A stretch of 64,000 nt of DNA. Source: Eledone cirrhosa (Eukaryota). Where the stretch lies: positions 21,142,001-21,206,000 of the forward strand of contig OZ024766.1 in NCBI GenBank assembly GCA_964016885.1, in the 5' to 3' direction. Under the pieces are notes generated by a model. That model was given only the letters and a program-made list of their open reading frames with translations, was not told where the DNA came from and ran no database searches. Shown here in pieces: positions 11,891-19,623 of the stretch; the first letter of the stretch is position 1; every line of letters starts with the position of its first letter. A program made the position numbers and the translations under genes.

Positions 11891-12596
11891 TATAAAGAAA
11901 AAGGGATGAAATCGAAAATGCAACTGAAGTCTTATTTTTTTTAAAAATATATATATTTATTTGGTTCCTTTACCGGTTTCGCAGTTCTTCTGCTTTTCAA
12001 AAGGTGAGTTGAGATGGAGGGTCTGTGGTTTTTCTCACATCTGGTTGGTCTCTAAATGTTACTTGTTTTATATGGAAAAACTGGCTCGAAAACCAGGTTT
12101 TTCGAGAAGTAATTTGATTGGTTTGTCAATAATTATAATAAATTTCGCGCCAGTTCGCGTTACAATAGTTCTTCAAATAGAGAGGGGGGGGGGGGGGGGG
12201 GGGCGTTGTCACAGGTTGTTTTTTCATATATGAGTGTTTGAATTTCTTTTTACTTGAAAAAATGAGGCTCACGAAGGCTTTTTTTTGGTTGGTTATAAAT
12301 GTCACGTGAACAAGTTTTCATTACATTTTTGCGCCCTTATTTGGAAAACTATTCTGTAGTCAGTCTTTATAGTGAATGTTATGACAATGGAGAGATAGTG
12401 GTCAAGGGAAAAGAGATTGGGAGAAATGTTCTGGTTCAGTGAATATGGCCAGCTGTCAGAGTTCAGGTGTCAGAGTTCAGATTTTCTATTGAGACTGAAG
12501 ATATATGAACTGCGAAACCGGTAAAGGAACCAAATAAATATATATATTTTTTTTAAAAATAAGACTTCAGTTGCATTTTCGATTTCATCCCTTTTT

Positions 12597-12603
<7 letters not shown>
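11891..12603. mobile_element. Penelope-like fragment with ~97-bp inverted arms and a decayed hammerhead (11967-12004, minus strand)
   Basis: Arms 11891-11987 and 12507-12603 are near-perfect reverse complements. Minus strand reads CCTT-ttgaaaa-GCAG(aagaa)CTGC-GAAACCGGT-A-AAGG. Confidence 0.6.
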
Positions 12604-12666
<63 letters not shown>

Positions 12667-12998
12667 GGAGACAATTGCAGTTACATTGCGTTCACTCAGG
12701 TATATATACATATACACACATACATACATACCTATACAGACAGGCATATATATATATATACACACATACATCCTTCTACTCACTTTACTGACCTTTTTAT
12801 ACTCATTCTTACAAACACACATATATATATGTATGTATATATATATATATTTATATATGCGTGTTTCAGATCCAGCCGTCGGGGTCTTACTTGTTCCTAT
12901 TACCCACTCTACTACCTTAAGTATTGAGTACTCTGGTGCGTTATGGTCCATCTGGTTCCTTACCACATTTCCTTCGTTATATATATATATATATATAT

Positions 12999-13915
12999 AT
13001 AAAATATTAAAAAAATAATGAATAAAACAATGAAACAGTTCCTTATATTAAACAAAAAAAGTTCATTATTTAACGATCGTTTCTAGAATATATATGTGTA
13101 AGAATTGGCATGCATATTCAACAGATCTATGTACAAAATTATACAAAATTATACAAACTATCAAAATTAAATATACATACCAACACATATATATGCCGTC
13201 TTCAGAAATAATGAAATATATTTATTGATAATAACAACAATTCAAAATTACAGGTCTGTGTGTGTGTGAATGTACGTATATGTGTGAGTATATGAATGTG
13301 TGTATATATTTATTTTTATATTTATATGCGTATACGTATTTTATCTGTAGATTATAAACATACAGAGACATTAGCCTTGAATTTTTGTATTTACATACAT
13401 CTTTTCGGCATGCGTATACATGTGAACATATATATTTTTATGCATATCTGTGAACAAAGTTATTTACATATATACACACACCTAACTGTATAAACTTTTT
13501 GTATTTTCATTGGTCAATTTGAACTCTGTTCCCAAACAGACCTGTAATTTTGAATTGTTGTTATTATCAATAAATATATTTCATTATTTCTGAAGACGGC
13601 ATATATATGTGTTGGTATGTATATTTAATTTTGATAGTTTGTATAATTTTGTACATAGATCTGTTGAATATGCATGCCAATTCTTACACATATATATCCT
13701 AGAAACGATCGTTAAATAATGAACTTTTTTTGTTTAATATAAGGAACTGTTTCATTGTTTTATTCATTATTTTTTTAATATTTTATCTTGACTCTGTATT
13801 CCGTTTATCTTTCACCGAAAGTGATTTTTCATTGCATCTCTTCTTTCCATGATATCCGGATTACATTGAGTTCTTCATACGGATTGGACACTACCGTAAA
13901 CTCTTGGTAGATTTA
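12999..13915. mobile_element. Penelope-like fragment with ~250-bp inverted arms (12999-13259 / 13536-13786), each holding a long-stem-II hammerhead motif
   Basis: Arms are near-identical reverse complements. The plus copy (13580-13723) reads TTCATTATTT-CTGAAGA...GAAACGATCGT-T-AAATAATGAA. Confidence 0.65.
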
Positions 13916-13917
13916 TC

Positions 13918-13947
<30 letters not shown>

Positions 13948-13948
<1 letters not shown>

Positions 13949-14771
13949 CATCATCATTTCATTTTACGTCCACTTTTCCCTGCTTGCGAGGGTGGGACTG
14001 GAACTGACTCTGGCTTGATTTCTACAGCTGGATGCCCTTCCTACCACCAACCTCATTTACAGTGAGTGCTGGGTGCTTTTTTGCCGTGGCACCTCCACGA
14101 CCACTTTACAGTGAGTGCTGGGTGCTTTTTTGCCGTGGCACGTCCACTTTATAGTGAGGGCTGGGTGCTTTTTTTGCTGTGGCACCTCCACGACCACTTT
14201 ACAGTGAGTGCTGGGTGCTTTTTTGCCGTGGCACCTCCACATCCACTTTATAGTGAGGGCTGGGTGCCTTTTTGCCGTGGCACCTCCACATCCACTTTAT
14301 AGTGAGGGCTGGGTGCTTTTTTTGCTGTGGCACCTCCACGACCACTTTACAGTGAGTGCTGGGTGCCTTTTTGCCGTGGCACCCCCACGTCCACTTTATA
14401 GTGAGGGCTGGGTGCTTCTTTTGCTGTGGCACCTCCACGACCACTTTACAGTGAGTGCTGGGTGCTTTTTTGCCATGGCACCTCCACGACCACTTTACAG
14501 TGTGGGCTGGGTGCTTTTTTGCCGTGGCACCTCCACGACCACTTTACAGTGAGTGCTGGGTGCTTTTTTGCCGTGGCACCTCCACGACCACTTTACAGTG
14601 GAATGATAGGGACCCCAGTCCCTATCATCTCATTTCTACAGCTGAGTAAACTGGAGCAATGTGAAGTAAAGTGTCTTGCTCAAGGAAACAACACATCACC
14701 CGGTCTGAGAATTGAACTCACAACCCTTCGATTGCAAGGCCAATGCTCTAACCACTAAGCCATGTGCCTCC
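13948..14771 (-). mobile_element. CORE-type SINE with ~11 internal 49-bp repeats
   Basis: Full head, CORE, array and tail in reverse orientation. Confidence 0.85.
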
Positions 14772-15694
14772 CTATATATATATATATATATGGAGGGAGA
14801 GAGGGACTTCTACAATATCGTTTTCTAATAGGGGCTTTTAATAAAAATAATAATGGTTTCGTTTTGTATTATTAACATGTTGTTGTTGTTGTTGTTACTG
14901 TGGTGTTGGTGTTGGCGGGGGTTTGTTCAGTCTCAAACAGAAATCTAAGGGGCGTGTGTGTCTGTGGAATACTCAGCCACTGTCTCAAGCTGAATCTCCC
15001 TGAGAACTAGAGTGTACCAGTAATTTAATGGTAAGCCATGACACACTATCTTATGCTGAATCTCCCTGAGAACCAGACAGTTGTCATGGCTACACTGTGA
15101 TATACTGAGTCTCCCTGAGAACCAGACAGTTGTCATGGCTACACTGTGATATAATGAGTAATTTAAAATTACTGGTACACTCCAGTTCTCAGGGAGATTC
15201 AGCGATGACAGTGTAGCCATGACAACTGTCTGGTTCTCAGGGAGACTCAGCGATGACAGTGTAGCCATGACAACTGTCTGGTTCTCAGGGAGACTCAGTA
15301 TATCACAGGGCAGTCGTGACACACACATCTGGTATACTGAATCTCCCTGAGAACTCCATAAAAGACACACATACTTAGAGATTGCTCGGACACTTAAACT
15401 CCACTCAACCAACGCTCGTTACTTCTTGGCTCACCATTAATTAATCCTTGATTAATACCGTTGCCACGGAAACGCTGTTGGCGTGGCAACAGTCTTGCTG
15501 TTGTTGTTTGTTTTTTTTATTAATTAATTAATTAACACACGTTTAATTGATTGTTGAATAATTGTGTTACTCTCGCGGCTGTTGTTTAGCCCTAGGCCAG
15601 GCCTGAGTCAGTAGACAGATCTATGATCAAAAGTCTTCCAGATGTGGCCATCTCCACATCTTTTTATTCAGGCATAGTTTATTCTAGGACTAAA

Positions 15695-16645
15695 GCACCT
15701 TTGTTAAGTTATGCTCCATTAGAAATATGGTAATGAAAGGGTTAAAGTGTTTATATTTGTGTAAGAACCTTTGTTGAGTTATGTTCCATTAGAAATATGG
15801 TAATGAAAGGGTTAAAGTGTTTATATTTATGTAAGAACCTTTGTTAAGTCATGTTCCATCATAATTTTGTATAAGAACCTTTGTTAAGTTATGTTCCATG
15901 AGAAATATGGTGATGAAAGGGTTAAAGTGTTTATATTTATGTAAGAACCTTTGTTAAGTTATGTTCCACTAGAAATATGGTAATGAAAGGGTTAAAGTGT
16001 TTATATTTATGTAATAACCTCCTTTGTTAAGTTATGTTCCACTAGAAATATGGTAATGAAAGGGTTAAAGTGTTTATATTTGTGTAAGAACCTTTGTTAA
16101 GTCATGTTCCACTAGAAATATGGTAATGAAAGGGTTAAAGTGTTTATATTTGTGTAAGAACCTTTGTTAAGTCATGTTCCACTAGAAATATGGTAATGAA
16201 AGGGTTAAAATGTTTATATTTGTGTAAGAACCTTTGTTAAGTCATGTTCCGTCATAATTTTGTGTAAGAACCTTTGTTAAGTTATGTTCCATTAGAAATA
16301 TTGTAATGAAAGGGTTAAAGTGTTTATATTTATGTAAGAACCTTTGTTAAGTTATGTTCCGTCATAATTCTGTGTAAGAACCTTTAAGTTATGTTCCGTC
16401 ATAATTCTGTGTAAGAACCTTTGTTAAGTTATGTTCCATCATAATTCTGTGTAAGAACCTTTTGTTAAGTTATGTTCCATCATAATTCTGTGTAAGAACC
16501 TTTGTTAAGTTATGTTCCATCATAATTCTGTGTAAGAACCTTTGTTAAGTTATGTTCCATCATAATTCTGTGTAAGAACCTTTTGTTAAGTTATGTTCCA
16601 TCATAATTCTGTGTAAGAACCTTTGTTAAGTTATGTTCCATTAGA
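15695..16645. repeat. Compound 70-bp/40-bp AT-rich minisatellite containing piggyBac-like AAAGGG-TTAA ends
   Basis: Periodicity is visible. The 40-bp subunit resembles 10511-10545. Confidence 0.85.
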
Positions 16646-16689
16646 AAGACTTATCGTTGTTGTTGTTGTTGTTGTTGTTGTTGTTGCAG

Positions 16690-16793
16690 TCGAGAGAGGG
16701 CAGCGAATTCCAGAACCGGATCTTCAAAGCCGGATGAGTTGAAGAGATGGCTTCCTGATCAACCTCCGAATGAGGAGTGGACATCGAAAGAAA
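16690..16793 (+). CDS. PARN: Candidate PARN C-terminal coding exon B (104 nt, phase 2 to 1)
   Basis: ttgcag|...|gtaggt; DRERAANSRTGSSKPDELKRWLPDQPPNEEWTSKE, open and in frame between 7857 and 19577. A unique, purine-rich island among repeats. Confidence 0.5.
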
Positions 16794-16817
16794 GTAGGTT
16801 CAACTCTCTCTCTCTCT

Positions 16818-18785
16818 CTCATCATCATCTTACGTCCCCTTTTCCCTGCTTGCAAGGGTGGGACGGGTCCTATTCAGCACAGCATCTCTTCTCCACTTGT
16901 CACGGTCCTTCGTCATCTCCACCGTGAGCTTCAGCGATCTGAGGTCAGCTCTCACCACCTCCACCCATGTTTTTCGTGGTCTTCCTCTACCACGTCTTCC
17001 TTCTACTGGCATTTCTTGGCACTTCTTTACCCAGCGGTCATCCTCCATGTGCATCACATGTCCATACCATCTCAGTCTTCTCTCCCACACACCACAACTT
17101 ATCCCTCTTATACCCAGTTTCTCTCTCAACACATCACATGTCCATACCATCTCAGTCTCCTCTCCCACACACCACAACTTATCCCTCTTATACACAGTTT
17201 CTCTTTCAACACATCACATGTCCATACCACCTCAGTCTTCTCTCCCACACACCACAACTTATCCCTCTTATACACAGTTTCTCTCTCAACACATCACATG
17301 TCCATACCATCTCAGTCTTCTCTCCCACACAATACAACTTATCCCTCTTATACCCAGTTTCTCTCTCAACTCATCACATGTCCATACCACCTCAGTCTTC
17401 TCTCCCACACACCACAACTTATCCCTCTTATACACAGTTTCTCTCTCAACACATCACATGTCCATACCATATCAGTCCTCTCTCCCACACACCACAACTT
17501 ATCCCTCTCAGACACAGTTTCTCTCTCAACTCATCACATGTCCATACCATCTCAGTCTTCTCTCCCACACACCACAACTTATCCCTCTTATACCCAGTTT
17601 CTCTCTCAACTCATCACATGTCCATACCATCTCAGTCTTCTCTCCCACACACCACAACTTATCCCTCTTATACACAGTTTCTCTCTCAACTCATCACATG
17701 TCCATACCATCTCAGTCTTCTCTCCCACACACCACAACTTATCCCTCTCATACCCAGTTTCTCTCTCAACTCATCACATGTCCATACCATCTCAGTCTCC
17801 TCTCCCACACGCCACAACTTATCCCTCTTATACCCAGTTTCTCTCTCAACTCATCACATGTCCATACCATCTCAGTCTCCTCTCCCACACACCACAACTT
17901 ATCCCTCTTATACACAGTTTCTCTCTCAACTCATCACATGTCCATACCATCTCAGTCTTCTCTCCCACACACCACAATTTATCCCTCTTATACCCAGTTT
18001 CTCTCTCAACACATCACATGTCCATACCACCTCAGTCCTCTCTCCCACACACCACAACTTATCCCTCTTATACACAGTTTCTCTCTCAACTCATCACATG
18101 TCCATACCATCTCAGTCTTCTCTCCCACACACCACAACTTATCCCTCTTATACCCAGTTTCTCTCTCAACACATCACATGTCCATACCACCTCAGTCCTC
18201 TCTCCCATACACCACAACTTATCCCTCTTATACACAGTTTCTCTCTCAACTCATCACATGTCCATACCATCTCAGTCTTCTCTCCCACACACCACAACTT
18301 ATCCCTCTTATACACAGTTTCTCTCTGAACACATCACATGTCCATACCACCTCAGTCTTCTCTCCCACACACTACAACTTATCCCTCTTATACACAGTTT
18401 CTCTCTCAACACATCACATGTCCATACCATCTCAGTCCTCTCTCCCACACACCACAACTTCTCCCTCTTATACACAGTTTCTCTCTCAACTCATCACATG
18501 TCCATACCACCTCAGTCTCCTCTCCCGTACACTACATTCTATCCTTCTCAGACACAGGTTCTCTCTCAACACATCACATGTCCATACCACCTCAGTCCTC
18601 TCTCCCACACACCACAACTTATCCCTCTCAGACACAGTTTCTCTCTCAACACATCACATGTCCATACCATCTCAGTCTTCTCTCCCACACACCACAACTT
18701 ATCCCTCTTATTCCCAGTTTCTCTCTCAACACATCACATGTCCATACCATCTCACTTTTCTCTCCCACACACCACAACTTATCCC
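16818..18785 (-). mobile_element. RTE-like LINE 3' end with a 60-bp segment amplified ~29 times
   Basis: Minus ORF RRLRWYGHVMHMEDDRWVKKCQEMPVEGRRGRGRPRKTW...DRDKWR, with a (GAT)n tail. Confidence 0.88.
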
Positions 18786-19303
18786 AGTGAGTGCTGGGTG
18801 CTTTTTTGCCGTGGCACCTCCACGACCACTTTACAGTGAGGGCTGGGTGCTTTTTTGCCATGGTACCTCCACGACCACTTTACAGTGAGGGCTGGGTGCG
18901 TTTTTGCCGTGGCACCTCCACGACCACTTTACAGTGTGGGCTGGGTGCTTGTTTGCCGTGGCACCTCCACGACCACTTTACAGTGAGAGCTGGGTGCTTT
19001 TTTCCCATGGTACCTCCACGACCACTTTACAGTGAGGGCTGGGTGCTTTTTTGCCGTGGCACCTCCACGACCACTTTACAGTGTGGGCCGGGTGCTTTTT
19101 TGCCGCGGCACCTCCACGACCACTTTACAGTGGTATGACAGGGACCCCAGTCCCTATCATCTCATTTCTACAGCTGAGTAAACTGGAGCAATGTGAAGTA
19201 AAGTGTCTTGCTCAAGGAAACAACACATCATCCGGTCTGAGAATTGAACTCACAACCTTTCAATTGCAAGCCCAATGCTCTAACCACTAAGCCATGTGCC
19301 TCC
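18786..19303 (-). mobile_element. CORE-type SINE 5' portion plus 49-bp array, joined co-directionally to the RTE fragment
   Basis: Head at 19303, array at 18786-19130, normal SINE tail absent. Confidence 0.85.
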
Positions 19304-19319
19304 ATATATATATATATAC

Positions 19320-19405
19320 AGACATATTTAGCGAGGGGTAGGTAGACTTACCCAGATGGTTTGCCATTCCAATAAAGCATAACCCTGTAATGAATGCGTC
19401 ATAAC
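19320..19405 (-). pseudogene. Exact inverted copy of PARN exon 3' half plus splice donor and intron start (source 520-605)
   Basis: 86/86 identity to the reverse complement of 520-605 by manual comparison. Confidence 0.92.
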
Positions 19406-19576
19406 GAGCTCCCATCGGAGCACGCAAGCCCCGTTTCTTTCCAATCTAGGCAAGGGTACAGCGCATAGCGCTGTAGGTAGGTACCCGAACTTTCGAACTT
19501 TCAACCTACAAAAAAAAGGGGTCTGGCATAGAATTTCACATCTTTTTTGTTTTGTTTCCTCGTTTATTTTCCACAG

Positions 19577-19623
19577 GCAAACAGGCGACTGTGCAGCTGT
19601 TTGAAAAGGACGATAACTGGTAG
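19577..19623 (+). CDS. PARN: PARN terminal coding exon
   Basis: ccacag|; phase 1; [14 protein letters not shown] matches the human C-terminus ATLFEVPDTW*. Confidence 0.88.

Follow-up and report, generated by a model that had tools for sequence, protein, structure and literature searches.

Recoding sites of the GRIA2 type carry an editing-complementary sequence (ECS) in an intron. ADARs disfavour a G immediately 5′ of the target adenosine, and a perfect duplex is expected to be edited promiscuously rather than at a single site. Among edited human Alus, the mean distance to the nearest inverted partner is 682 bp for partners in one intron and 1993 bp for partners across introns, according to the figures highlighted in PMC2533698, and an inverted Alu lies within 1 kb of 78.3% of edited Alus in the data outlined in PMC4053975. 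At the DNA level, microhomeology junctions are described for germline MMBIR templated insertions in the account given in PMC8421209. An inverted copy of part of a coding exon, located in an intron of its own gene in Eledone cirrhosa, is compared here with these systems.

The window is the whole stretch of DNA analysed, 64,000 bp of contig OZ024766.1 (assembly GCA_964016885.1). Joining of eight GT-AG exons from 463 to 19623 produced a single open frame, the sole stop of which is at its end (Table 1). Pfam searches located CAF1 and RNA_bind (RRM) exons in the gene, and exon 463-573 was aligned to residues 364-397 of human PARN (E value 1.7e-12), with CAT 510-512 opposite H377 and GAC 525-527 opposite D382. 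With the CAF1 nuclease domain, H377/D382 and the RRM (RNA_bind) all present, the host gene is assigned by homology to PARN, a DEDDh deadenylase. H377 and D382 are named as essential catalytic residues of PARN in the relevant part of PMC10493513. The copied tract takes in the D382 codon, and the H377 codon lies outside it; an earlier reading made from the sequence alone (the sequence-only reading) had equated the Asp of the copied part with D382, and the alignment bears this out. The last coding intron of the gene spans 16794-19576 (2783 nt). An open stretch bounded by AG and GT was also observed at 10707-10810, in a long intron; its phase is mismatched to that of the next exon, and the length of the mRNA contig described below is too short to include it.

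Table 1. Positions of the features of the PARN locus discussed in the text, numbered from the first base of the window
Feature	Position	Strand	Remarks
PARN exons	463-573, 1305-1374, 1903-1958, 4875-4961, 6154-6228, 7683-7857, 16690-16793, 19577-19623	+	GT-AG, in frame
PARN exon with H377 (510-512) and D382 (525-527) equivalents	463..573	+	3′ half is the template of the copy; mRNA contig splices the 463 exon to exon 1305
Template tract	515..605	+	Exon part 59 nt, intron part 32 nt; GT donor at 574
TA run and full SINE (head 620-790, four 49-bp units, LINE-like tail)	606..1160	+	In the intron after the catalytic exon
Nearer inverted SINE, a potential competitor for the 620 SINE in pre-mRNA	5092..5703	-	Likewise 4607-4733 and 13997-14784
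Penultimate PARN coding exon	16690..16793	+	Last intron begins at 16794; GT-AG, in frame
Presumed RTE-like LINE 3′ end and GAT tail	16818..17051	-	93-96% identity to the best 39 other full-length matches listed
80-bp-unit tandem array from the end of the LINE ORF, 21.7 units	17052..18785	-	Occurs in further copies of the same LINE
Tail-less SINE: head and 7 x 49-bp units	18785..19304	-	Joined to the LINE array; junction unique genome-wide
TA run and inverted copy of 515-605	19305..19410	-	86/86 exact; 90/91 counting junction-side bases
60-bp remnant of an older RTE-like LINE subfamily	19412..19471	-	At the return junction
Last PARN coding exon	19577..19623	+	Stop at 19621-19623

In an ungapped comparison, 520-605 and the reverse complement of 19320-19405 were identical at 86 of 86 positions, as had been claimed for an exact antisense copy of these codons, the GT donor and the start of the intron. 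Past a single mismatch (519/19406), the four bases 515-518 also match, with a chance expectation of 0.4%; the copied tract probably amounts to 90 of 91 bases (515-605), or else these bases represent microhomeology at the junction. On the SINE side the copy carries one extra TA unit relative to the template. Alignment of 515-995 with 19410-18928 gave 94.6% identity over 483 columns, and the SINE head at 620-810 differs from its inverted partner at 9 of 191 positions, in agreement with the earlier count of about nine differences where the copy continues into the inverted SINE. The last intron is made mostly of repeats and the exon copy, in the minus-strand order exon piece, donor, TA run, SINE head, 49-bp array (7.1 units, 18785-19132), 80-bp array, LINE 3′ end and GAT tail. 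This order is the one given by the sequence-only reading, from which the 80-bp array at 17052-18785 had been omitted. No tRNA was detected in the SINE heads by ARAGORN, and no Pfam match was obtained for the LINE end, which we take to be RTE-like from its C-terminal motif. Nesting of the exon and SINE piece within one LINE copy was considered and ruled out, as 19412-19471 fits the older LINE subfamily (scores of 72-78) far better than the young, array-forming subfamily (19-36), in a comparison that covered 15 of 24 loci. On the minus strand of 19352-19517, an acceptor-like, T-rich site with its terminal TAG near 19506 and the copied GT donor would delimit a possible 154-nt antisense cassette exon; RNA support for this putative cassette was not found.

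Repeats are abundant elsewhere in the surroundings. The largest is a 26.6-kb tandem array at 26914-53543, with a 54-bp unit present in approximately 510 copies matching at 94%. The last 80 bp of the LINE ORF and the 49-bp segment of the SINE have been expanded into tandem arrays at 17052-18785 and 61597-62244 as well as at other loci (L040-L052), in many independent copies found mostly on small chromosomes such as C27. At 61350-62515 two LINE 3′ ends lie inverted around an 80-bp array, an arrangement resembling twin priming and found in similar form at L045. A local inverted intronic duplication (11895-11987 and 12507-12599, 93 bp at 96.8%) and, by eye, a longer palindromic intronic pair (approximately 12990-13790) were also noted, and 36 low-copy dispersed duplications were counted in 256 kb, many of which may be repeat families. 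The GEKPY-type C2H2 arrays that neighbour the locus, the SINE/RTE tails and a genome of 3.0 Gb are in keeping with a coleoid; protein searches added no taxonomic match, and the protein clusters retrieved were generic CAF1 ones.

A genome search with 463-605 returned three matches, namely the exon, the intron copy and a third at G000:C27:21029965-21030055, all within 132 kb. The junction at 19405 had been singled out earlier as the point to be confirmed. Among the short-read contigs of organism A, those of run X2 take in 19293-19430 and, at 0 differences, 19401-19523; run X3 contains a daughter-type path together with contig breaks at 19405 and 19418/19389, where an exon-type path bearing the junction is needed. 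No coverage of the unique part of the copy came from RAD run X21. The organism A runs possibly come from the assembly's own project, and the comparison is to be read as a test of the assembly and not of the population. Because the junction is bridged by contigs from another run and recurs in a second, diverged copy in the genome, the exon copy is real and no assembly chimera. That it should be a chimera or a polishing artefact is scarcely credible, even in a region so rich in repeats (189,366 of 256,000 bases masked) and with reads that may share a source with the assembly.

The third match belongs to a second copy, located 131 kb upstream (L003 1485-1720; G000:C27:21029949-21030184), which the sequence-only reading had missed. 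This daughter copy reproduces 19304-19547 of the window, that is, the TA run, the exon piece, the same junction and approximately 140 bp of flank. Substitutions relative to the window copy number 2 in the 86-bp part and 9 in the flank, where an 8-bp indel is also present. The daughter is entered at a TA run and left with approximately 2 bp of microhomology, has on either side an arm of a 93-bp direct duplication, the arms differing at 3 positions, and is without a LINE tail; a nearby homolog of the repeat in which it sits has no insert. Because of the start at the TA run, the microhomology, the duplicate arms and the missing tail, the daughter copy is read from its structure as a DNA template switch. 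A C2H2 zinc-finger ORF of 394 codons, on the + strand, has its stop approximately 1.2 kb upstream of the daughter copy; were the copy part of the 3′ UTR of that gene, it would be a trans antisense to the PARN exon. The daughter variant at 19388 was present in no X1 contig.

The daughter copy also bears on age. Pairwise divergence is 4.8% (11/229) for the daughter copy, 4.7% (9/191) for the SINE head and 3.2% (3/93) for the duplicate arms; the three clocks agree at 3-5%, and the daughter copy would date the junction to approximately 5% pairwise divergence. When 19412-19471 was polarized with 13 family copies, four of the seven differences (one of them weakly) were derived in the window lineage and three in the daughter. 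As differences are derived in both lineages, the junction is at least as old as the split between the two copies. In the adjacent 143 bp, no fewer than 3-4 substitutions, and probably an 8-bp duplication as well, arose in the window lineage.

A perfect unique part beside a diverged SINE part had been taken to suggest a recent template switch or gene conversion, a self-retrocopy, or selection. Zero differences in the pre-chosen 86 bp, with about 3 expected, has P = 0.03-0.07, and a perfect run of at least 86 bp anywhere in the 291-bp tract has P of approximately 0.3. With base 519 counted, the probability that the first 91 bp hold no more than 1 of the 11 differences is P = 0.10-0.21, and the SINE head has a 91-bp perfect run of its own (693-783). 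The identity of the unique part thus appears not to be anomalous, and the contrast with the SINE, which these values leave short of significance, is suggestive at most. The copy is young, yet the case for a recent origin is weakened by a junction that predates the daughter copy and its 11 differences in 229 positions. Since the deficit of differences is not significant, selection, one of the options suggested earlier, is not needed to explain the identity; it and later gene conversion are both possible.

The data are probably best explained by a neutral, DNA-level templated insertion, in which an ectopic template switch primed by the SINE and TA run produced the inverted copy of PARN 515-605. 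At the outset the last intron would have borne a block of LINE array and SINE with a TA run at its end. There, a DNA end left by a break or a stall may have annealed to the homologous sequence at 606-995 (TA run and SINE), which is inverted and 18 kb away; synthesis would then have overrun the homology by approximately 90 nt, into the donor and the exon, and the end would have come back, via a few bases of microhomeology, into the old LINE remnant. A later switch of like kind, again at the TA run, would have taken the exon copy and approximately 140 bp of flank 131 kb upstream, leaving the 93-bp duplication. The homology available for entry of the window copy comprises the TA run and approximately 380 bp of inverted SINE; at its return junction, 4 of 5 bases show microhomeology between exon and LINE remnant, a short match that is weak when taken alone. 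No target-site duplication (TSD) was found around 16818-19410, the longest word common to the flanks being 6 bp and off the junction; this LINE family often inserts in microsatellites, which can mask a TSD. The SINEs are informative as well. Among 27 SINE heads, 725C occurs only in the copies at 620, 14771 and 19303. The 620 SINE has 796C and 628G and the 19303 SINE has 652G, each found in other family members and absent from the partner, and such mosaic alleles seem easier to reconcile with local ectopic exchange than with a single clean duplication. An origin by template switch or conversion between the inverted SINEs, as put forward by the sequence-only reading, is supported by the hallmarks of the daughter copy, the SINE mosaic and the missing TSD.

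Mosaic alleles would also be expected if gene conversion between the inverted repeats had later made the unique part of an older, functionless copy uniform with the exon, an alternative that we consider possible, if on the unlikely side. The 0/86 differences (P = 0.03-0.07) point in the same direction, against which the deficit is not significant with base 519 counted. One X2 contig joins the SINE end to two daughter-copy variants and may be an unconverted allele; it may also be a product of graph simplification, and X3, from the same sample, separates the exon-type and daughter-type paths. Slightly more doubtful is an RNA-level origin, in which the LINE reverse transcriptase, during target-primed reverse transcription, would have jumped at the SINE array from LINE RNA to nascent PARN pre-mRNA, copied back across the SINE, the donor and the exon, and inserted its product into that same gene. 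All three components, exon piece, SINE and LINE end, are indeed sense on the minus strand with the intron unspliced, the LINE-SINE junction is single in the genome, and the LINE end is 4-7% from its best relatives among the matches listed, a divergence close to that of the SINE. LINE-1 chimeras with sense orientation and with 5′ parts derived from introns are described in the portion of bioRxiv 10.1101/2025.02.02.635956 concerned; the same source gives a TSD as a hallmark, and it is mainly because none was found here that this origin, itself likely neutral in effect, is rated as rather unlikely. The common family alleles that the 620 and 19303 SINEs each bear and the other lacks, the DNA-level switching shown by the daughter copy at the same TA run, and a return flank from a different, older LINE subfamily also count against it.

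Whatever its origin, the copy could pair with the exon. Computed duplex energies are −98 kcal/mol over the 54 bases of exon, −164 kcal/mol over the full 86 bp and −890 kcal/mol with the SINE included, and the duplex of several hundred bp over exon and donor that had been envisaged is, by these values, physically possible. Nearer to the 620 SINE lie other inverted partners, 4 and 13 kb off, with comparable energies (−827 and −821 kcal/mol against −890). The 86/86 complement lies in the last intron of the same frame, separated from the exon by 18,779 nt in the genome and by 3125 nt with the six upstream introns removed, as compared with the averages of 682-1993 bp highlighted for human Alus in PMC2533698. 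There are 14 adenosines in 520-573, 9 of them recoding if edited, with that of D382 among them; the D382 adenosine has G as its 5′ neighbour.

Run X1, taken as RNA solely from its exon-joining contig, contains an mRNA contig (1847 nt, depth 74.9) in which the exon is present, is spliced by its normal donor into exon 1305, and is followed through to the last exon. A>G changes in 520-605 and skipping of exon 463-573 had been named as the signs to look for. No A>G was found over 520-573 in this single contig, the tissue of which is unrecorded and in which, as in contigs generally, minority variants are dropped; the exon was included and normally spliced. Majority editing and majority skipping are excluded, in the X1 sample only. 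No matching X1 contig was found over 19452-19559 and LINE-family pieces only over 19412-19447, which is not evidence on expression. Runs X6 and X7 (organisms B and C, 80% likeness) gave no contigs on 19342-19531 nor on the exon itself, and so are without a positive control.

The role in editing, skipping or donor masking assigned to the copy by the sequence-only reading is not supported: the single mRNA contig is unedited and normally spliced, the 620 SINE has nearer partners, and a G stands 5′ of the D382 adenosine. It is highly improbable that the copy is a functional editing-complementary or splice-masking element, its complementarity kept since the duplex recodes or silences part of the PARN mRNA. 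A perfect 54-bp exon duplex with 9 recoding adenosines, an effective distance as short as 3125 nt and the mild deficit of differences are in its favour; set against these are the unedited, exon-including major mRNA contig, the competing inverted SINEs, the promiscuous rather than one-site editing expected of a perfect duplex, and the youth of an insertion embedded in repeats. The donor belongs to a 731-nt intron 18.8 kb before the copy, an intron probably spliced before the copy is transcribed, and masking would need unusually late splicing. Incidental editing of precursors that retain the last intron is plausible, because the gap is only 3125 nt once the six upstream introns have been removed. 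A bolder proposal, which we regard as improbable, is that the repair accident made a de novo ECS, active only after splicing brings the exon within approximately 3 kb of the unspliced last intron; in a high-ADAR tissue a minority of PARN transcripts would be either retained or hyper-edited along the helix of the active site (Y>C, D382>G, M>V, N>D/S), with conversion or selection keeping the arm identical. If true, it would offer a snapshot of the birth of a recoding site. Under the neutral template-switch reading that is preferred here, copy and exon could form a duplex in precursor RNA, chiefly after loss of the upstream introns has brought them to 3.1 kb of each other; any editing would then be expected as a minor, promiscuous by-product rather than as a recoding switch under selection.

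As a neutral templated insertion the copy matters little in itself. It would illustrate how TA runs and SINEs in a repeat-rich genome shuttle small pieces of coding exon locally, twice at this locus, and how such shuttling can make perfect exon-antisense arms within the host gene. Should editing be found, the locus would record when, and in which lineage, an editing partner arose over a catalytic residue of a deadenylase, and would permit a direct test of whether splice order can draw a distant partner into range. No publication joining PARN, cephalopods and RNA editing, nor any on this locus, was found in a literature coverage that was incomplete.

In relation to known systems, the locus resembles the inverted-Alu duplexes, as characterized in the sections of PMC2533698 and PMC4053975 at hand, in that intronic sequence complementary to a coding exon and its donor runs on into inverted SINEs. 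It differs from a GRIA2-type ECS in that the partner is 18.8 kb and six exons off, in that the duplex is perfect, not imperfect, and young, and in that no editing was seen in the X1 mRNA contig. With the LINE/cellular-RNA chimeras, as portrayed in part of bioRxiv 10.1101/2025.02.02.635956, it shares a cellular part placed 5′ of a LINE 3′ end, in the same sense and with a tail, and departs from them in that no flanking TSD was found, the LINE is RTE-like instead of L1, and the landing site is in the template gene itself. As for retrotransposition hallmarks, the daughter copy has none; the window copy has no TSD, yet has a same-strand LINE tail 2.5 kb off. The MMBIR/FoSTeS templated insertions, in the account given in PMC8421209, are matched in that a short insert was taken, inverted, from a nearby locus (515-605, on the same contig), with junctions of microhomology or microhomeology and with repeated switching. 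These junctions (TA run/SINE entry and 4/5 return bases in the window copy, TA run and approximately 2 bp in the daughter) are short matches. The templates here are 18 kb and 131 kb off, whereas those of that account lie within approximately 100 bp; entry was apparently primed by TA-run or SINE homology, and the captured piece is the catalytic exon half of the host gene. The daughter copy has the duplication-insert-duplication form described for such insertions in the same account.
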